This document shows, piece after piece, positions 3,153 to 59,575 of a DNA stretch of 61,102 nucleotides (its first letter is position 1; each line of letters opens with the position of its first letter). The position numbers and the translations under genes are program-made. Under the pieces are notes generated by a model. That model had not been told where the DNA came from, ran no database searches, and worked only from the letters and a program-made list of their open reading frames with translations. This stretch comes from an uncultured Candidatus Saccharibacteria bacterium (GTDB lineage: Bacteria; Patescibacteriota; Minisyncoccia; Phycocordibacterales; Zambryskibacteraceae), in contig CAZOQP010000002.1 of assembly GCA_964582295.1 (NCBI GenBank), positions 148,268 to 209,369 on the forward strand. Reading direction: 5' to 3'.

Positions 3153-3638
3153 CTATGCTCTTTTCCACTCTGTTTTTATTCCTTTGCGCTGATTATCAGC
3201 CATTTGAAGCTCATCATAAATACCGTCTATGAGCTCGTAATTTTTAGATTCCTCGAGCGTTACCCATTCAAATTTATCTGTCTCATTTTCCTGCAATCTA
3301 ACTTCCCCGTTGGCATAGTCGGCCATACATGAAATAACAAGAGAGGGTGCGCCGTCTGCATGCACTGTGGCTAAGCTCGTAACGTATTCAATATTTTTTA
3401 TCTGGAGTCCCACCTCTTCCGCCACCTCCCTTTTAAGCACTTGCTCCAGAACGTTGTACCAATAATCTTTTGTATCTTTAGGAAGATTTATATAATCGTT
3501 GGTTTCCAGTTTCCCTCCCGGGACTGTCCACATTCCAGGGAAACGTTTCTTTGTGAGCGCACGTCGGGTTATAAGATACTTGCCATCTTTGACAATGATA
3601 GCAGTAGTAACAACCTCATGCAGATATTGGTTTTCCAT
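3153..3638 (-). CDS. NUDIX hydrolase
   Basis: PGGKLE...LKREVAEEVGL Nudix box (with insertion). Confidence 0.9.
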   Translation of the reverse strand: MENQYLHEVVTTAIIVKDGKYLITRRALTKKRFPGMWTVPGGKLETNDYINLPKDTKDYWYNVLEQVLKREVAEEVGLQIKNIEYVTSLATVHADGAPSLVISCMADYANGEVRLQENETDKFEWVTLEESKNYELIDGIYDELQMADNQRKGIKTEWKRA

Positions 3639-3656
3639 ATCCCGATTGTATCAAAA

Positions 3657-4091
3657 TTAATTTTCAGTCTGCTTTCCCCTGTTTCTTAGACCCAATATGA
3701 CAAAAACAAGTGCGTAAACTATATGCTCATCAACTATAGGATTATTTTCCGGCGGAAGAAGAGCGAGCCACATAAGAATCATCATCACTGTGCCAGACAT
3801 AGCTCCCCAGAAAACAAATCTGTTCAGCAATAAAGTAAGCCCTATAAAAAGGAGCCCGAGCATAAACATCCAATCCACTACAGCCACTCCTGCCAAACTA
3901 TGAAAGAAATCTGCGAAGGGGCCCTTGACGGCATTGGTAAGGAAACCAAATGTGGGTGAGCCCCCATTTATCCATGCATTTGCTTTTTCCGTTGCAAAAC
4001 CCAGTCCGAAAGCTTTATCCACGAACGCCCAAAGAAAGATAAACGACATCACGAAACGCAGTTTCAAAAATGCGATATTTTGTATATTCAT
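3657..4091 (-). CDS. DoxX/DoxD-family membrane protein
   Basis: LRFVMSFIFLWAFVDK, W-x-NGGSPT-x-GFL, 4 TM segments, NPIVDEH; ATG at 4091 preferred over TTG 4097. Confidence 0.8.
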   Translation of the reverse strand: MNIQNIAFLKLRFVMSFIFLWAFVDKAFGLGFATEKANAWINGGSPTFGFLTNAVKGPFADFFHSLAGVAVVDWMFMLGLLFIGLTLLLNRFVFWGAMSGTVMMILMWLALLPPENNPIVDEHIVYALVFVILGLRNRGKQTEN

Positions 4092-4268
4092 ATGCAATTA
4101 TTGTACCACCACAAAAATAATGGCTGGGGTTTACATATCCCCCAATGGTGTTAAACTCCTTAGGTAAGCCTTATGGCTTGCTCGTGTGAATTATAAGTAT
4201 CTCGTTATAAGACTGGAGTAATCCAGTCATTGTCTTTCTAAGACTGGCGAGACTAACTATTGATTACA

Positions 4269-4421
4269 ATGGACGACGCACAAAATGTTCAGAATCCTCA
4301 ACAGGATCCGAACAATACTCCGCAGGCAACTCCTATAGAGGAGAACATCATGCCAAAGCCGGAAGCCACTACTCAAGTAGAAGAGGCCGCTCCGGAAGGG
4401 GCTCCACAGGCTCAGGCCTAA
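4269..4421 (+). CDS. Small acidic Pro/Gln-rich protein (50 aa), not in the ORF track
   Basis: MDDAQNVQNPQQDPNNTPQATPIEENIMPKPEATTQVEEAAPEGAPQAQA*, followed directly by a terminator. Confidence 0.65.
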   Translation: MDDAQNVQNPQQDPNNTPQATPIEENIMPKPEATTQVEEAAPEGAPQAQA

Positions 4422-4423
4422 GC

Positions 4424-4468
4424 AAAACAAAAAAGTGTCGACCTATCAGGTCGACACTTTTTTGTTTT
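4424..4468. terminator. Bidirectional intrinsic terminator
   Basis: AAAACAAAAAAGTGTCGACC-TATCA-GGTCGACACTTTTTTGTTTT between convergent genes. Confidence 0.85.
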
Positions 4469-4469
4469 C

Positions 4470-4503
4470 AGTAAATTTGTACGATATATCGTACAAATTT
4501 ACT
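4470..4503. repeat. Loopless palindrome, family A copy 1
   Basis: AGTAAATTTGTACGATATATCGTACAAATTTACT, perfect 34 bp. Confidence 0.9.
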
Positions 4504-4508
4504 ATTCT

Positions 4509-5684
4509 TCACACTTGACGCTCTATATCTTTCGGGCGTGTAGGCAGTGATCTGATAATAGTCTCGTAAAGATGCATAAGTTTTCTGGCAATGATATTAC
4601 TTGAAAACTGCCTGGAAGTTTCCATTGCCTTTAAGGAAATCTTTTCCCGTAATTTTTTGTCATTCAGTAGCTGTCCCGCTATTTCAATTGCTTCTTTTTG
4701 GGAGTTCACGAGAAATCCGTTTTCACCGTTTCTAATAATTTCTGGAGCAACACCGATAGGATATACGATAGGCACCAGTCCTTGTGACATCCCCTCAATA
4801 AGACTAAGTGAAAATCCTTCGTAACGGGACGGAATGAACAGAATGCCGCCCCGGAGCGGGCGAAGCATTTCAGGTAGGTTATCTTTTTTTGTATTTGCGA
4901 ATACCGTGTGATTCGGAATTTCTGACCGAAGCCATGCCACTAATTTTTTGTTCGTAGTTATGCAAAAGGTTGATTTCTTGATATTTGGAAATTGTTGAAA
5001 AAAGTGAATAAGGCGATCAAGTCCTTTCAATTTTAATGTAAACGCATCGCTCCCGAGTCGGCCTAGAAATACCAGAGATGGTTCAGGCGCAAATTCCTGA
5101 TGAGAGGGATCAAGCCAGTAATCTTCAATAGCGTTATGGATCAGATGGATTTTTTTCTCATCTACACCAATGGACAATAATTCCTGGCGTACATGCTCTG
5201 AAGTAGCTACAACTGCTGTGGCTCTGGAAGCCACATATTCTTCAATGTCTGCGATGTCTCTCAGTGGTCGTCGTGTCTTGATGTTCAATTCGCTTATGAT
5301 CCCCTTACTCTTAAGCCTATACCAGATCTTCCGGCTCCCATTCTCAATATCCTTTGCTTGGGGAGTGGATGTAAGAAAACCGCGCGTAACCGAGCCAAAG
5401 TGGCTGACTACAGGCACCGGATAAGCCAGAAAGGGTAGAGGTGTATATGTCGTGCCTTGGATGATATTAAATTTTAGGATCTCCTTTCTGTGTTCGAGAA
5501 GGGAGTAGAAGAAAAGGATACTTTTTAGACCACCCAGATGTAACGGTGTATCAACGAGAGAGGTTCGCGGATAGAAGTTTTTTATATCAACTCCGGCATC
5601 TTTTAATTTCAAGGCCATGAGGTCATTTATGTAATGTGCCCCTGTACCAAGCTTCTTTTCATTATGTATGAATGCGATTTTCAT
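4509..5684 (-). CDS. Glycosyltransferase family 4 (GT-B)
   Basis: PSRYEGFSLSLIEGMSQG and NGENGFLV motifs. Confidence 0.9.
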   Translation of the reverse strand: MKIAFIHNEKKLGTGAHYINDLMALKLKDAGVDIKNFYPRTSLVDTPLHLGGLKSILFFYSLLEHRKEILKFNIIQGTTYTPLPFLAYPVPVVSHFGSVTRGFLTSTPQAKDIENGSRKIWYRLKSKGIISELNIKTRRPLRDIADIEEYVASRATAVVATSEHVRQELLSIGVDEKKIHLIHNAIEDYWLDPSHQEFAPEPSLVFLGRLGSDAFTLKLKGLDRLIHFFQQFPNIKKSTFCITTNKKLVAWLRSEIPNHTVFANTKKDNLPEMLRPLRGGILFIPSRYEGFSLSLIEGMSQGLVPIVYPIGVAPEIIRNGENGFLVNSQKEAIEIAGQLLNDKKLREKISLKAMETSRQFSSNIIARKLMHLYETIIRSLPTRPKDIERQV

Positions 5685-6014: not shown

Positions 6015-6052
6015 TCCCTCAATTTGTACGATATATCGTACAAATTGAGGGA
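6015..6052. repeat. Loopless palindrome, family A copy 2
   Basis: TCCCTCAATTTGTACGATATATCGTACAAATTGAGGGA, perfect 38 bp. Confidence 0.9.
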
Positions 6053-7090: not shown

Positions 7091-7130
7091 AATCCTCAAT
7101 TTGTACGATATATCGTACAAATTGAGGATT
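7091..7130. repeat. Loopless palindrome, family A copy 3
   Basis: AATCCTCAATTTGTACGATATATCGTACAAATTGAGGATT, perfect 40 bp. Confidence 0.9.
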
Positions 7131-13053: not shown

Positions 13054-13095
13054 GTCCCCTATTCTAATGTTCTTAAGAACATTAGAATAGGGGAC
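13054..13095. repeat. Loopless palindrome, family B copy 1
   Basis: GTCCCCTATTCTAATGTTCTTAAGAACATTAGAATAGGGGAC, perfect 42 bp. Confidence 0.85.
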
Positions 13096-26901: not shown

Positions 26902-27080
26902 TGGCGGGCGGTGGAGGAATCGGCGACAGCTCACTAATTCGCCCTGTCCATTTTGGCGGGGCTCATAAGTGGCTCCTGCCCGGGCTCGTCCCGCGTAGCG
27001 GGACTCCGCCTTTCGATTCCTCACCATCCTCGCAACGATGAACCGCTCAAATAGCCCCCGGCTATTCTCGCGGGTCATTG
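26902..27080 (-). mobile_element. tRNA-Trp 3'-anchored mini-element (176-bp repeat spacing)
   Basis: 19-bp direct repeat of the tRNA 3' end (26904-26922 vs 27080-27098) plus an inverted T-arm copy at 27012-27025. Confidence 0.55.
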
Positions 27081-27151
27081 CGGGCGGTGGAGGAATCGAA
27101 CCCCCGACAGCGGATTTGGAGGCCGCAGTTATACCATTTAACTAACCGCCC
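27081..27151 (-). tRNA. tRNA-Trp(CCA)
   Basis: GGGCGGT/ACCGCCC, GCGG-C-CTCCAAA-T-CCGC, GGTTCGATTCC. Confidence 0.93.
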
Positions 27152-27174: not shown

Positions 27175-27338
27175 CCGCTCGCCGTGCCTTTCGGCGTACA
27201 CGCATAAATTTGCCCAGCGGCAAATTTTGCTGTCTCTCAGCTCGCCAAAGTAAAGAGCCCCTCGTGATTACACTCGGGGTCATTGACTTACCTAGCTTTC
27301 TCGCTTCCGAGACGTACGGCGAAAGGCACGGCTCGCTA
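27175..27338 (-). repeat. GAGCGA-flanked palindromic element 1
   Basis: Arms GCCGTGCCTTTCGGCGTAC / GTACGGCGAAAGGCACGGC (1 mismatch); flanks TAGCGA and GAGCGG on the minus strand. Confidence 0.65.
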
Positions 27339-27349
27339 CAAAATCCTTA

Positions 27350-27473
27350 GAGCGAGGGGTGATGACGAAAAGAGGCAGTGCAGCGCGAGGGTGCCGTTGC
27401 TGAATGGTTGCATTCAGACGGTGAGCAAGCAGCAGATTTTTATGCGTACTCTTTTCGTCATCACCCCGAGCGA
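27350..27473 (+). repeat. GAGCGA-flanked palindromic element 2
   Basis: GAGCGA-GGGGTGATGACGAAAAGAG...CTCTTTTCGTCATCACCCC-GAGCGA; close copy at 56550. Confidence 0.85.
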
Positions 27474-45364: not shown

Positions 45365-45504
45365 GAGCGAGGGGTATTCCTTGAAAATGTTTTTTGAGTA
45401 AAGCACTCAGACACGAAAAGAGACTCAGACCCGGGGCACGCCCCGGAGTGGTCTCTTTTCGTGTCTGAGTGCGTGCCTCCATTTTCAGAGAATACCCCGA
45501 GCGA
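45365..45504 (+). repeat. GAGCGA-flanked palindromic element 3
   Basis: GAGCGA-GGGGTATTC...GAATACCCC-GAGCGA with inner 20-bp arms ACTCAGACACGAAAAGAGAC/GTCTCTTTTCGTGTCTGAGT. Confidence 0.8.
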
Positions 45505-54791: not shown

Positions 54792-55233
54792 AAAAGTTTC
54801 AGTCTCTTTTGTGGCTTTAAGCGCCGCGCGCGGAATTCCGCGCGCGGCGCTTACGCGCGCAGCCCATTTAATACTCTCCTCCTCATACGAACTCTCTGTA
54901 GTTTTCACTAATTCCGCTCATTCACAGCAACTGAATAAAAAATTCCGCCGCAAAAATTATCCTGCGAATGTGCTTTCATTCCCCCTTTCATCATCTTCGG
55001 GAGAAATATTTTTGGACATCAAAAAAATATCAAAAGAAGCGAAAGATTTCGGCCTTTCCGGCAAAAATGCTGTCATTTATATGTTTATCCACGCACTCCT
55101 GCATTTGAAAGGCCGCAAACACGGCGCTACAATGGACGCTGAAGAAAGGCGCACTTTGGAGAAACTAAAAATCCCCATGCCTTTCCACTTGAACCAACAC
55201 ACACATGGCAAGAAACATCGCCGTCGGCATTGA
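54763..55233 (+). CDS. ybeY: rRNA maturation endoribonuclease YbeY
   Basis: LNKKFR.K..PANVLSF, GEIF, HALLHLKG..H; start uncertain (GTG 54811 plausible). Confidence 0.85.
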   Translation: MRKSVAAGAKKVSVSFVALSAARGIPRAALTRAAHLILSSSYELSVVFTNSAHSQQLNKKFRRKNYPANVLSFPLSSSSGEIFLDIKKISKEAKDFGLSGKNAVIYMFIHALLHLKGRKHGATMDAEERRTLEKLKIPMPFHLNQHTHGKKHRRRH

Positions 55234-56389
55234 TTTGGGCTCTAGCACTGTAAAGGTGGTGGTAGCTGAAAGGGGCAACTCCGCCCCGCGTATTCTTGCG
55301 ACAGGTGTGGCGGAATCAAAAGGCCTGCGGCATGGCTACGTGGTGAATTCTGCGGAAGCGGCGCGCGCGGTGAAAATGGCAAAAGAGATGGCGGAGAAAC
55401 AGTCCGGCATCCGCATAGAATCAGCCATTGTATCTGTGGGAGGTGTCGGCCTTTCAGGTATCACATCTTCAGGCACCGCAACCATCACAAGACAGGATGA
55501 CGAAATACACGAAGGAGATATTGAAGAAGCTCTGCGCGCCGCCGAAAATGCCATTCCTAAAAGCGAGATAAAGAACCGCCGCATCCTTTACAACATCCCA
55601 ACCGAATACATTATTGATAAAAAACCTGTTTTCGGAAAAGTGCTCGGCATGAGAGGTAGCGAACTGACAGTGAAAGCTCTTTTCATAACCTGTCTCGAAA
55701 GCCATGTGAAAGAACTAGTGGAAACACTTGCCGAAGCCGGCATTGAAACTTTGGATGTATGTGCTGCACCCATTGCCGCAAGCTTCGTAACACTTACCAA
55801 ATCCCAGAAGATCGCCGGCTGCATTTTGGTAAACATTGGCTCAGAAACCACATCTGTCGCCGTGTTTGAAAATAATCTTCCACTTTCTCTTGAAGTTTTT
55901 CCCATGGGCTCTGTTGATATCACACACGCCCTTGCTTTGGGTCTTAAAATATCTCTTGAAGAGGCCGAGATGGTGAAGCGCGGCGGCATTACGAACGATG
56001 ATTATCCGCGTCGGAAACTGGACGACATTATCACTTCGCGCATGGGAGATATTTTTGATCTCGTGGAAGCGCATCTCAAGAAAACAGGCCGTGCCGGCCT
56101 TTTACCTGCAGGTGTAGTGGTAGTCGGTGGTGGAGCAAACTTTGCAACAATTGAGGATTTTGCGCGCGCCGCTCTTCGCCTTCCATCGCGTATCGCACAT
56201 ATTGAACTTGGCCACCGGGATAGAACTATCCGTGATTCTTCGTGGGCTGTTGCTTATGGACTTTGCTATCTCGGACTTGAATCCGATGATGACTTTCCTC
56301 TTTCACTTGCTTCACTTTCAGGAATGCTTAAAAAGCGAGGAAAACTTGAAGCTATCGCCAAAAATTGGTTTTCTAAATTCATACCCTGA
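55205..56389 (+). CDS. ftsA: Cell division protein FtsA
   Basis: GIDLGSS, S.GLRHG.V, LVNIGSETT, VVVGGGANF. Confidence 0.93.
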   Translation: MARNIAVGIDLGSSTVKVVVAERGNSAPRILATGVAESKGLRHGYVVNSAEAARAVKMAKEMAEKQSGIRIESAIVSVGGVGLSGITSSGTATITRQDDEIHEGDIEEALRAAENAIPKSEIKNRRILYNIPTEYIIDKKPVFGKVLGMRGSELTVKALFITCLESHVKELVETLAEAGIETLDVCAAPIAASFVTLTKSQKIAGCILVNIGSETTSVAVFENNLPLSLEVFPMGSVDITHALALGLKISLEEAEMVKRGGITNDDYPRRKLDDIITSRMGDIFDLVEAHLKKTGRAGLLPAGVVVVGGGANFATIEDFARAALRLPSRIAHIELGHRDRTIRDSSWAVAYGLCYLGLESDDDFPLSLASLSGMLKKRGKLEAIAKNWFSKFIP

Positions 56390-56394
56390 AGACG

Positions 56395-56486
56395 TCACTC
56401 AGATAACACCCTTTTTCAAACAGTTGCCGCTTCGGTGTTTACGAAATCACCTCCCGCGTGTGTGAAAAAGGGTGTTATCTTCGCTC
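56395..56486 (-). repeat. GAGCGA-flanked palindromic element 4
   Basis: 18-bp arms AGATAACACCCTTTTTCA/TGAAAAAGGGTGTTATCT; minus-strand flanks GAGCGA and GAGTGA. Confidence 0.75.
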
Positions 56487-56509
56487 CTTAAGTATTAGAA
56501 CTTAACTTA

Positions 56510-56687
56510 AAGCGAGCAGTACGGAGTTTTTCAAACTAGAGTTAATTTAGAGCGAGGGGTGATGACGAAAAGAGGCTGTGCAGCGCGACGGCGCGAGGGT
56601 GAGCAAAAAATCAGCAGATTTTTATGCGTACTCTTTTCGTCATCACCCCGAGCGAATGCTGTTTGAAAAACTCCGTACTGCGAGCGA
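56510..56687 (+). repeat. GAGCGA-flanked palindromic element 5 (outer)
   Basis: AAGCGA-GCAGTACGGAGTTTTTCAAAC...GTTTGAAAAACTCCGTACTGC-GAGCGA, perfect 21-bp arms. Confidence 0.8.
56550..56655 (+). repeat. GAGCGA-flanked palindromic element 6 (nested in element 5)
   Basis: Same 19-bp arms and GCAGATTTTTATGCGTA core as 27350-27473. Confidence 0.85.
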
Positions 56688-56775
56688 AATTTACAGCACA
56701 AAAAAGGTAAAAATCAAGGAGTTGCGCGGTTTTTAGGTTTAAGTAGTATGGGCGGCAATTAATAAAGAAAATCAA

Positions 56776-57948
56776 ATGCCGCAAATCAAACCAGACGTGG
56801 AATCGTTCGCTCGCATTAAGGTCATCGGAGTAGGCGGATCAGGCCGAAATGCCTTGAACCATATGGTCAATTCCAAGGTGAAAGGGGTTGATTTCATAGC
56901 GGTTAATACGGACGCCCAGGACCTTCATCATTCAACTGCCAAGAAGAAGATACACATCGGCAAGAACCTCACCCGAGGCCTCGGCACCGGTATGGACCCA
57001 GAGCTCGGAAAAAGAGCGGTTGACGAAACCAAGGAGGAAATCCAGGAAGCCGTCAAAGGCGCGGATATGGTCTTCATCGCCTGCGGCATGGGCGGAGGCA
57101 CCGGAACCGGAGCGGCTCCCGCTATAGCTCGCACAGCTCGCGAGGCAGGATGCCTTACTGTAGGTGTAGTTACAAAGCCCTTCTCTTTTGAAGGTATCCA
57201 GAGAATGCGCATTGCCGAAGTCGGATTGGAAGAACTTCGCGATTCAGTGGACGCTCTCATAGTGATACCGAACGACCGTCTTCTCGCTGCAATAGATAAG
57301 GACACTACCGCTAAAAGCGCATTCGCAATGTGCGACGACATTTTGAAACAGGCCGTGGAAGGAATTTCAGATCTCATCACCACCCCCGGTATCATCAACA
57401 TTGACTTCGCGGATATCAAAGCCATCCTTGAAAGCGCAGGGCCGGCCCTTATGGGTATCGGGCATGCTTCAGGCGACAACCGTGCAGTGGATGCAGCGCG
57501 TCTCGCTATCAATTCCCCGCTTTTAGAGGTTTCCATTGCAGGAGCAAAGGGTGTCCTCTTCTCAATTTCAGGAAACGACGACCTCACTATGTTTGAGATA
57601 CAGGATGCGGCTAAGGTCATCACCGAGTCGGTTGACCCGAACGCCAAGATCATCTTCGGAACTGTGAAGGACGAGAAACTGAAGAAGAACGAATTGAAGA
57701 TAACCGTCATTGCTTCGGGTTTTCCTGAAGGTACGGTTCGCAAAGAGATAATGAGCACAGCCGCTGACCGTGGAAAAATATTCAACATCGTTGAAACTGT
57801 AAAGAACGATAGGAAAGAAGAGGAAAAGAAAAATAATAAAGAAGAAAAAGAAATGAAGACGGAGCCGGTTCCTCCAGTAAAGAAAGATGACGATGACGAC
57901 AGGTGGGATGCGGTACCTTCGTTTTTGAGACGTTCACGACTTAAATAG
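56776..57948 (+). CDS. ftsZ: Cell division protein FtsZ
   Basis: IKVIGVGGSG, GMGGGTGTG tubulin signature, NIDFAD, C-terminal VPSFLR. Confidence 0.98.
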   Translation: MPQIKPDVESFARIKVIGVGGSGRNALNHMVNSKVKGVDFIAVNTDAQDLHHSTAKKKIHIGKNLTRGLGTGMDPELGKRAVDETKEEIQEAVKGADMVFIACGMGGGTGTGAAPAIARTAREAGCLTVGVVTKPFSFEGIQRMRIAEVGLEELRDSVDALIVIPNDRLLAAIDKDTTAKSAFAMCDDILKQAVEGISDLITTPGIINIDFADIKAILESAGPALMGIGHASGDNRAVDAARLAINSPLLEVSIAGAKGVLFSISGNDDLTMFEIQDAAKVITESVDPNAKIIFGTVKDEKLKKNELKITVIASGFPEGTVRKEIMSTAADRGKIFNIVETVKNDRKEEEKKNNKEEKEMKTEPVPPVKKDDDDDRWDAVPSFLRRSRLK

Positions 57949-58595: not shown

Positions 58596-59531
58596 ATGGA
58601 ATATGAACTCGCGATCATAGGCGGAGGGCCGGCAGGAGTTTCCGCAGCCGTATATGCGGCCCGCAAAAAATTAAAGACTATTTTCATCACCGAATCATTC
58701 GGTGGGCAGAGCTATGATTCCGAGGATATACAGAACTGGATAGGAACACCACATATTTCAGGTCACGATCTTGCAGAAGCTTTTGAAAAACACGTGCGCG
58801 AATATGCTGGCGGAACGGTGGAGATCACTCTTGGAGAAAGAGTAACTTCAATAAAAAAAGAGGGTGGCATTTTTAAGATCACTGTAGGCGGCACTGTGCA
58901 CGAAGCTAAAACCATTCTTATATCAACCGGCTCCTCGCGCCGTAAATTGGATATACCGGGTGCTGCGGAATTTGAGAACAAAGGCATCACTTATTGCGCG
59001 TCCTGCGACGGGCCTGTGTTCGCCGGAAAAAATGTAGCCGTTATAGGAGGCGGCAATGCCGGATTTGAAACAGCCGCCCAGCTCCTGGCTTACTGCCCTT
59101 CCGTTACGCTTCTTCAACACGGAGAGCGTTTCAAAGCGGATGAAATGACAGTTGAAGCTGTTTTGAAACATCCAAACATGAAAACTGTTTTGAATGCCGA
59201 CCCGATTGAAATAAAAGGAGATAAATTCGTGAACACTCTCGTGTATCGAGACCCAACAGGCAATCACGAGCTGCCAGTTGAAGGAGTTTTTGTAGAAATA
59301 GGCCTTCTCCCCAACACGGAGATTGTGAACGGATTAGTTGATCGCGATACATACAACCGCATTAAAATAGACCCGCGTACCCAAAAAACTTCCCTACCTG
59401 GCATATGGGCAGCCGGAGACGTGAGCGATGTCATTTACCACCAGAACAACATTGCCTCTGGCGACGGTGTACGAGCTCTGGAAGATATTTATATACACAT
59501 CCGCGCAGGCGGCTCCCCAGACATGCGTTAA
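58596..59531 (+). CDS. trxB: Thioredoxin reductase-like FAD oxidoreductase
   Basis: IIGGGPAG, YCASCDG, VIGGGNAG, WAAGD. Confidence 0.9.
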   Translation: MEYELAIIGGGPAGVSAAVYAARKKLKTIFITESFGGQSYDSEDIQNWIGTPHISGHDLAEAFEKHVREYAGGTVEITLGERVTSIKKEGGIFKITVGGTVHEAKTILISTGSSRRKLDIPGAAEFENKGITYCASCDGPVFAGKNVAVIGGGNAGFETAAQLLAYCPSVTLLQHGERFKADEMTVEAVLKHPNMKTVLNADPIEIKGDKFVNTLVYRDPTGNHELPVEGVFVEIGLLPNTEIVNGLVDRDTYNRIKIDPRTQKTSLPGIWAAGDVSDVIYHQNNIASGDGVRALEDIYIHIRAGGSPDMR

Positions 59532-59575
59532 TTTTCTATTCTGATGTTCGTACGAACATCAGAATAGAAAATTAA
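59528..59575. repeat. Loopless palindrome, family B copy 2
   Basis: TTAATTTTCTATTCTGATGTTCGTACGAACATCAGAATAGAAAATTAA, perfect 48 bp. Confidence 0.85.

Follow-up and report, generated by a model that had tools for sequence, protein, structure and literature searches.

Stacked and nested hairpin repeats between ftsA and ftsZ in a Patescibacteria genome: a probable copy of a dispersed, gene-less repeat system

The question raised by this locus is why most of the 386-bp spacer that separates ftsA from ftsZ, from the end of the ftsA stop codon (56389) to the ftsZ ATG (56776), consists of palindromic DNA, how that DNA came to be there and whether it matters to ftsZ. The window, the whole stretch of 61,102 nucleotides that was analysed, comes from an uncultured Candidatus Saccharibacteria bacterium and corresponds to C2:148268-209369, where C1 to C7 are the contigs of the source genome (G000); positions given without a contig are those of the window. 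This genome comprises 568 kb in 7 contigs, with 46% G+C and a completeness of 99%, and its relatives are small Patescibacteria/Paceibacterota genomes. The answer favoured here, with a rough probability of 0.6, is that the spacer is occupied by a single copy of a modular, gene-less hairpin repeat that is dispersed in this Patescibacteria genus and shaped by a process acting at hexamer joints.

Anatomy and history of the stack

Hairpin elements and the hexamers beside them take up positions 56395-56687 of the spacer, which leaves 88 bp before the ftsZ ATG. An initial annotation of the window had described three palindromic elements filling the gap, and all three are found there, as hairpins at 56401-56480 and 56516-56681 and, nested within the second, at 56556-56649. 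The features of the locus are as follows.

55205-56389, plus strand: ftsA, 394 aa, an open reading frame (ORF) with stop TGA at 56387-56389; Pfam FtsA and SHS2_FTSA
56395-56400, plus strand: stop-proximal hexamer TCACTC, a variant of TCGCTC, 5 nt past the ftsA stop, after agacg
56401-56480, plus strand: unit E1, the first element; arms 56401-56422 and 56459-56480 of 22 nt with 1 mismatch, loop of 36 nt
56481-56486, plus strand: distal hexamer of E1, TCGCTC
56487-56515, plus strand: linker CTTAAG...CTTAA, then AAGCGA (56510-56515); recurs in other stacks
56516-56681, plus strand: unit E2, in GAGCGA orientation; perfect 21-nt arms 56516-56536 and 56661-56681, 124 nt apart
56550-56655, plus strand: nested unit A with both GAGCGA hexamers; A proper at 56556-56649, with a conserved two-hairpin core
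56682-56687, plus strand: distal hexamer of E2, GAGCGA; the reverse complement of the right flank reads TAA-att-TCGCTC
56776-57948, plus strand: ftsZ, 390 aa, an ORF; Pfam Tubulin and FtsZ_C

The stack consists of two units placed tail to tail, TCGCTC...cttaag...cttaag...GAGCGA, in which the linker and the TCGCTC preceding it form a small hairpin of their own. E2 is made up of 11-bp outer arms (GCAGTACGGAG/CTCCGTACTGC), found in no other copy in the genome, and an inner stem (TTTTTCAAAC/GTTTGAAAAA), and its loop has the form TAGAGTTAATTTA, slot, ATGCT. The slot is occupied by unit A, whose perfect 19-nt arms (56556-56574 and 56631-56649) lie within the E2 loop, flanked by GAGCGA hexamers at 56550-56555 and 56650-56655. 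Removal of A with one hexamer leaves the E2 loop TAGAGTTAATTTA-GAGCGA-ATGCT, which bears out the nesting that had been proposed. For each of the arm patterns, 0 matches are expected (100 shuffles), and the fold z-scores against shuffled sequences are -7.1 for E1, -8.0 for A, -6.8 for a further copy near tRNA-Trp and -10.6 for the entire stack.

Dispersal is evident for single units and for whole stacks alike. Counting fragments, the genome has about 11 copies of unit A, four of which are 100% identical over 106 nt including the hexamers, with two more differing at 1-3 positions; contigs C3 and C7 both end inside A copies. Three entire stacks, at ftsA-ftsZ, C1:24260 and C2:40555, are homologous in alignment from the base after the stop to the last hexamer, and the TCACTC variant together with the preceding AGACG recurs in the paralogous stack at C1:24441. 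The alignment shows that the three elements need not be separate arrivals, the stack having been copied as a composite and later remodelled. The mobility that the initial annotation had read from the nesting and from a dispersed copy therefore stands in part: dispersed copies and presence or absence between species speak for it, and whole-stack homology speaks against three independent arrivals.

Several traces of remodelling are visible. The E1 loop at ftsA-ftsZ is 97 nt shorter than that of the long-loop E1, owing to a deletion flanked by the direct repeats (G/A)AAATCA. The stack at C2:40555 is without the left half of E2; this deletion lies exactly between the hexamer-bearing direct repeats CTTAaAGCGA and TTTAgAGCGA and is the only breakpoint mapped precisely to repeats of that kind. 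Half-E2 remnants are cut at hexamers, with another one at C1:86171. The 11-bp outer arms of E2 have been swapped on both sides, complementarily, and the nested slot holds A at ftsA-ftsZ and C2:40555, and the unrelated hairpin D, in the same position, at C1:24260. The copies of A show 0 differences in 106 nt, as against 4 of 38 positions in the conserved part of the E2 host (Fisher p = 0.004, the host divergence being taken from a gapped alignment with a 1-nt indel in the flank). Since A is identical while its host has diverged, A would be the youngest layer of the stack or a homogenised one; the comparison thus supports, from sequence, a genuine later arrival of A in its slot or its homogenisation there.

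The hexamer bracket and the search for a mover

Every hairpin unit of this genome stands between two hexamers of the same orientation, (T)CGCTC...TCGCT(C), or GAGCGA in the flipped reading, and this bracket is common to hairpin families unrelated to one another, namely A, B (which has C inside it), D, E and F. In G000, and equally in G004, another member of the genus, TCGCTC/GAGCGA ranks first among all 4096 hexamers as an exact direct repeat enclosing inverted-repeat segments. The bases nearest the foot of the hairpin are conserved: the hexamer facing the stop reads nCGCTC and the distal one TCGCTy. Among 25 bracketed units in G000, 15 have the stop of a sense ORF 3-6 nt before the proximal hexamer, 2 are reversed and the remainder are mostly nested, which amounts to 15/17 informative outer units starting 3-6 nt past a stop. 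Just past ORF stops, CGCTC is the top enriched 5-mer in G004 (5.1-fold) and among the top ones in G000 (2.7-fold). Solo hexamers after stops, which could represent empty targets, are rare, nearly every such site already carrying a hairpin.

Further bracketed units lie elsewhere in the window:

27350-27473, plus strand: sister copy A' with both GAGCGA hexamers; hairpin 27356-27467, near tRNA-Trp (27080-27151)
27175-27338, plus strand: unit F, arms GCCGTGCCTTTCGGCGTAC, bracket CCGCTC...TCGCTA, stacked beside A' behind tRNA-Trp
45365-45504, minus strand: unit B with hairpin C in its loop (C2:193632-193771), bracketed, 4 nt past a stop codon

The sister copy of A near tRNA-Trp had been pointed out at the start, and its description proves accurate: A' has identical 19-nt arms and the GAGCGA bracket, and measures 112 nt against 94 nt for A. 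Its loop is 18 nt longer than that of A and its P2 region differs, features of a subfamily common to A' and C3:23380. Units F and A have in common the motif ACGCATAA-hairpin-TTTGCT.

The relation between hexamer and interior bears directly on how such units could move. GAGCGA flanks A on both sides and is oriented with its asymmetric interior in 11/11 copies in G000 and in 4/4 copies in other species of the genus, a coupling in 15/15 copies that has a chance probability of about 3e-5 and is unlike a transposon with symmetric terminal inverted repeats (TIRs). Classical miniature inverted-repeat transposable elements (MITEs), in which the TIRs are read as double-stranded DNA by a DDE transposase acting in trans, with GAGCGA as target and a 6-bp duplication, would explain the perfect 19-22-bp TIRs, the direct hexamer flanks and the plausible E2 loop obtained on taking out A and one hexamer, and yet are a very improbable account, given this coupling. 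A unit can also have unlike hexamer variants to its left and right (TCACTC/TCGCTC, GAGtGA/GAaCGA, GAGCGA/GAGCGt), and TCACTC is co-copied with its unit. In terms of target duplication, young A copies have identical hexamers and older units mismatched side variants. In other genera the arms vary from copy to copy, unlike a transposase binding site, and no longer partner with the same ends is found in G000 or G004: in neither genome is there a bracketed inverted-repeat segment of 0.33-3 kb that could be an autonomous partner, DDE families not having been searched one by one.

A candidate enzyme is encoded in the genome itself. An intact Y1_Tnp protein (C1:64146-64796, 216 aa) has HFH and YIHLNP motifs and scores 41.7 bits in Pfam (cut-off 23) and 46 bits, below the cut-off of 80, against the NCBIfam model for the transposase associated with repetitive extragenic palindromic (REP) sequences, the REP-associated tyrosine transposase (RAYT); a second Y1 gene (C5:18253-18930) has its N-terminus frameshifted in an A-run. 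The units might accordingly be repeats of the REP type, or of the REP doublet type forming hairpins (REPINs), moved by the genome's own Y1 enzyme (HUH, of IS200/RAYT type), which would cut beside CGCTC on both sides. The same-strand motif at both hairpin feet, the orientation coupling and the mosaics, which resemble bacterial interspersed mosaic elements (BIMEs), fit HUH chemistry, and within the genus the presence of Y1 tracks A matches, with 11, 3 and 4 in genomes that have Y1 and 1 each in three genomes without it. Across the order this association is lost, Y1 being present in 25/41 genomes with the A core (61%) and in 91/151 overall (60%), and several high-copy genomes have no Y1, namely G043 (8 copies), G111 (7) and G122 (11). 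Bracketed units also occur in G002, G003 and G004, which have no Y1, and G004 still has short repeats that are at least 97% identical. The intact Y1 gene, moreover, is flanked by a hairpin, ACATAGGCAAGACCTATGT, that is found nowhere else, and not by hexamer units. On balance, movement by the resident Y1 is unlikely.

Some details of the enzymes examined may be recorded separately. At C1:64118-64807 the ACATAGGCAAGACCTATGT hairpin is identical 14 nt before the Y1 ATG and over its stop, a minimal IS200-like layout in single copy, and the second Y1 gene contains an in-frame CTCCGAGGTTCAACCTCGGA hairpin, with the same palindrome just upstream. As the mover, Y1/HUH was set aside on the grounds that the genes are present without phyletic association and that the Y1-less G004 has young repeats; small GIY-YIG nucleases were set aside as partners because their genes adjoin tRNA fragments and do not lie inside brackets. 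One Xer-like tyrosine recombinase (C1:113847-114353 in G000) is present in 11/13 genomes searched, with none found in G005 (69% complete) and G028.

Orientation coupling, mismatched side hexamers, the co-copied TCACTC and the deletion between hexamer-bearing repeats lead us to infer a strand-specific hairpin process. In the account proposed, the basic unit is a hairpin between two co-oriented hexamers, placed a few bases behind a stop codon and sense to that gene. Two such units, joined tail to tail via a CTTAAG-type linker, make a stack, and the E2 loop provides a hexamer-bounded slot for a third. The stack, as its whole-length homology to two others shows, was copied as a composite and subsequently altered by the 97-nt deletion in the E1 loop and the replacement of both outer arms of E2, and its nested slot, filled by D in a paralogue, holds A. 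At the hexamer joints a strand-specific, hairpin-recognising process, rather than a cut-and-paste DDE transposase, would copy, replace and delete units; candidates for it may be an HUH/Y1 enzyme, the one recombinase of Xer type, or template switching at hairpins. A bolder version would take CGCTC...TCGCT for docking words kept behind the stops of housekeeping genes, at which strand-specific recombination integrates, nests, replaces and deletes non-coding hairpin cassettes, with no dedicated transposase gene inside the elements or close to them and with the order-wide three-way-junction core, ACGCATAA-P3-TTTGCTC-P2, read by an enzyme or an RNA-binding protein, and would thereby define a new class of mobile DNA rather than another form of REP or MITE repeat; it is put forward tentatively and is doubtful at present.

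Relatives within and beyond the genus

The initial annotation had asked for spacers to be aligned across strains; a comparison across species separates the genus from its neighbours: hairpins are present within the genus, each of them different, and other genera are without them, their ftsA-ftsZ spacers being 100-190 bp long, with no hairpin and no hexamer. The proposal of mobility had been made conditional on relatives not all sharing the identical nested structure, and none of the relatives compared does. In G002, G003 and G004 the spacers reach 820-920 bp and contain an opposite-strand histidine-phosphatase-like gene (Pfam His_Phos_1). Each of these three genomes has one hairpin, of a different family, directly after the ftsA stop, with the hexamer 3-5 nt beyond it; G002 and G004 have the bracket TCGCTC...TCGCT(C/t), and G003 a degenerate form, CGCTC...TCGCTt. 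In G001 a contig break falls within the spacer, inside an oppositely oriented A-family unit. Scans for closer relatives returned little, as a scan of metagenome contigs with FtsA found no relative, a scan of genome contigs found distant genomes only, and the A arm particular to G000, used as a probe, matched only by chance, inside unrelated genes.

The phosphatase-like gene between ftsA and ftsZ encodes 157 aa with an RHG motif (L011 398-871 in G004, with equivalents in G002 and G003). G000 is without an orthologue of it, the nearest match there being to a weak paralogue (C1:185811; 31% identity, E = 0.002). The orientation of E2 with its nested A in G000 is that expected behind a lost phosphatase-like gene.

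Comparison of the whole G004 genome with G000 covered 20 loci, with synteny at 19. At sites that carry units in G000, G004 has 5 short empty spacers, 4 different hairpin families and 1 unit of the same family (F). At C2:142375 the two genomes share the gene-proximal variant GAGCGt and its flank and have unrelated hairpins between the hexamers, which looks like the replacement of a cassette at a fixed site, to judge from sequence. G004 also has a 'G family' of its own at no fewer than 8 sites (e.g. the C7 ftsA site, C3, C9 and C10 of that genome), with varied arms of the kind GGrTnTTCGTTTTAAAwGC and a constant loop, GCGAGCGnCnnAAGGyCACCAATGC, that contains a GAGCG word. A tandem duplication of 1.05 kb, 99.9% identical, lies at C7:2499-3550 and 3630-4681 of G004.

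The core of unit A reaches much further than the bracket. A 15-mer of its P2 hairpin is present in 41/151 genomes of the order, in up to 11 copies, and a reversed control gave two matches. Among 17 aligned cores from at least 8 genera, the two hairpins are maintained, with 12/14 pairs kept through changes on both sides (for example GCGC/GCGC to AAAC/GTTT); G-U and A-C counts are equal and favour neither strand. In G122 and G043 the core is near-constant, each copy having its own perfect 13-28-bp closing stem and no hexamer bracket. The bracket is thus genus-specific and the core order-wide. Viewed with 250-nt flanks only, A cores in distant genomes show no clear direction relative to genes. 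A search of IMG/VR for viral carriers of the A core returned 15-mer matches that are due to chance or lie in another context. On the low-GC (34-40%) viral contigs L095, L106, L152, L198 and L207 there is a common stretch, ...GGCCCGGACCAGGxTGCACGCTGCA-CTCGCGCCGTCGCGC-TCGCTCCGCTAATGACC, in which the P2 hairpin of the A core stands in a different context and is followed by TCGCTC.

Conservation of this kind, together with the position of the units, raises the possibility that they are functional structures of 3' untranslated regions (stabilisers, terminators or protein sites) kept by selection and dispersed by gene conversion rather than by transposition. The fixed orientation to the upstream gene, 3-6 nt past stops, and the compensatory changes in the A core across genera would suit such a role. 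So would unit F, which is kept at an orthologous site (C3:50055-50192 in G000, C1 at about 35250 in G004) with arm changes that are fully compensated (gccgtgcctttcggcgtac vs gctgtattctccggcgaac) and that suggest selection on the fold. Terminal stretches of about 10 nt (TCGCTCGGGG...CCCCTCGCTC) are also common to the units and might serve as guides for conversion by short homology. The units are nevertheless dispensable, as the five orthologous sites in G004 and the spacers of other genera are empty, and in sister species one and the same site is taken by hairpins of unrelated families. A terminator scan of 56200-56900 made two calls, both inside ftsA and none in the spacer (56390-56775), and the stems are followed by TCGCTCCTTAAG or GAGCGAAATT, with no U-tract of the kind that marks a Rho-independent terminator. 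A search of Rfam 15 gave no family match for the repeats, only a chance match to DicF (E = 0.68). Neither strand is favoured by the G-U and A-C counts, and perfect 21-bp stems would be substrates of RNase III. Selected 3' structures are accordingly an improbable explanation of the units.

The dispersed, modular repeat remains the preferred reading, and a number of points weigh against it. None of the six genomes of the genus has an empty E2 loop. The removal of A with one GAGCGA kept, as in the initial annotation, presupposes a target duplication, which is not supported: besides the missing empty loop, side variants are not shared and TCACTC travels with its unit. The empty sites of G004 are without a hexamer, in intergenic DNA that is too diverged to align (FtsZ being 81% identical), and the comparison of filled with empty sites is limited to distant species, with none at close evolutionary distance. 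No enzyme is linked to the elements by phyletic or positional evidence. The tight placement behind stops could reflect selection in a very compact genome and not targeting. Lastly, the hexamer may be lineage-specific and not the mechanistic key, because the A core of other genera has no bracket and a closing stem particular to each copy.

Consequences for ftsZ, known repeat systems and meaning

The initial annotation had suggested that the stack may change FtsA:FtsZ stoichiometry through termination or mRNA processing. Downstream of the stack one further feature is to be considered.

56722-56749, plus strand: promoter-like box TTGCGC-N16-TAGTAT, downstream of the stack, 27 nt before the ftsZ ATG

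In alignment, a box of the form TTGCrmG-N16-TAGTAT is conserved upstream of ftsZ in all five species of the genus, and its conservation and position point to a putative promoter; a strict sigma-70 scan of the spacer called no promoter, the box included. In G002, G003 and G004 the opposite-strand gene already separates ftsA from ftsZ. The conserved box downstream of the stack, taken with that opposite-strand gene in three relatives, indicates that ftsZ is transcribed on its own in the genus. Given the predicted promoter and the intervening gene, the stoichiometry idea is not supported, and the stack probably does not control ftsZ. Its place, behind the ftsA stop and ahead of the predicted ftsZ promoter, would be the one neutral slot, where insertions may be tolerated, and at most it might end or insulate the ftsA transcript.

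The stack is a member of an undescribed modular hairpin-repeat system, nearest in kind to REP, BIME and REPIN repeats and to MITEs, and it departs from both in the features that define them; a search of the full-text literature found no account of such repeats in Patescibacteria. The background to REP, BIME and REPIN repeats and to RAYT reportedly goes back to Gilson et al., to Nunvar in 2010, to Bertels and Rainey in 2011 and to Ton-Hoang in 2012. As in these repeats, the units here are short, multi-copy extragenic palindromes after genes, form alternating mosaics with linkers (25 units, tail-to-tail stacks) and carry, where the hairpin begins, a short single-strand motif that is conserved, in a genome with a Y1 gene. 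Unlike in REPs and REPINs, the feet are CGCTC (5') and TCGCT (3') and not 5' GTAG, units nest in loops, unrelated hairpin families share one bracket, and the Y1 gene is neither flanked by repeats nor associated with them phyletically.

A GTAG-bearing hairpin does exist in the genome, as a separate repeat. The sequence (aaaatatac)GTAGGACwGTCCTAC(gtatatttt) occurs at 8 sites of G000, such as C2:147887 (about 380 bp ahead of the window), C1:48942, C1:119429, C3:23307 and C3:50221, and is absent from G004; five of the 8 copies adjoin hexamer stacks. At C2:147887 it stands in place of the variable hairpin in the ACACATAA-...-TTTGCTC motif of A and F. Other palindromes of the window are of different kinds: three perfect ones (4470-4503, 6015-6052 and 7091-7130) have the common half-site AATTTGTACGATA|TATCGTACAAATT and resemble an operator or another repeat family, and two perfect ones of 42-48 nt (13054-13095 and 59528-59575) have the common half-site TATTCT(A/G)ATGTTC.

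MITEs such as Correia/NEMIS of Neisseria, ERIC and RUP are likewise non-autonomous, about 100-200 bp long, equipped with TIRs (19-22 nt here) and intergenic; they are transcribed together with adjacent genes, and species differ in which of them they carry. They differ from the present units, in which orientation is tied to an asymmetric hexamer, the flanking repeats appear not to be true duplications, no parent insertion sequence (IS) is found and closing stems vary between copies in other genera. Derivatives of IS200/IS605, the palindrome-associated transposable elements (PATEs) that move by 'peel and paste', also combine a same-strand hairpin with a short cleavage motif and insert in a fixed orientation at a fixed short word without real duplication, which is compatible with the coupling and the mismatched variants seen here; the units described, however, have one hairpin each where those derivatives have separate hairpins at the left and right ends, the same word on both sides and no association with TnpA. 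Cassette exchange at integron attC sites is similar in its folded single-strand hairpin substrates and in the presence of different cassettes at the same short core site, whereas the cassettes here are gene-less hairpins, the core word, CGCTC, is direct and lies outside the stem, and the genome has no integron integrase, only the one Xer-like tyrosine recombinase. Rickettsia palindromic elements, finally, are hairpin repeats that spread in a reduced genome with no known transposase, but these lie in frame inside genes, in contrast to units placed outside genes, behind stops.

The genomes of Patescibacteria (the candidate phyla radiation, CPR) are among the smallest and most streamlined in bacteria, and G000 nevertheless spends several percent of its intergenic DNA on copied, nested and swapped hairpin repeats. 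In practical terms the repeats break assemblies, as seen at the two contig ends that fall in A copies, and they inflate operon spacers such as that between ftsA and ftsZ, which can then be misread as regulatory regions. If the process is indeed hexamer-guided and strand-specific, the system would offer a tractable case of gene-less DNA that moves without a recognisable transposase, and a handle on a hairpin-recognising enzyme or RNA-binding protein.

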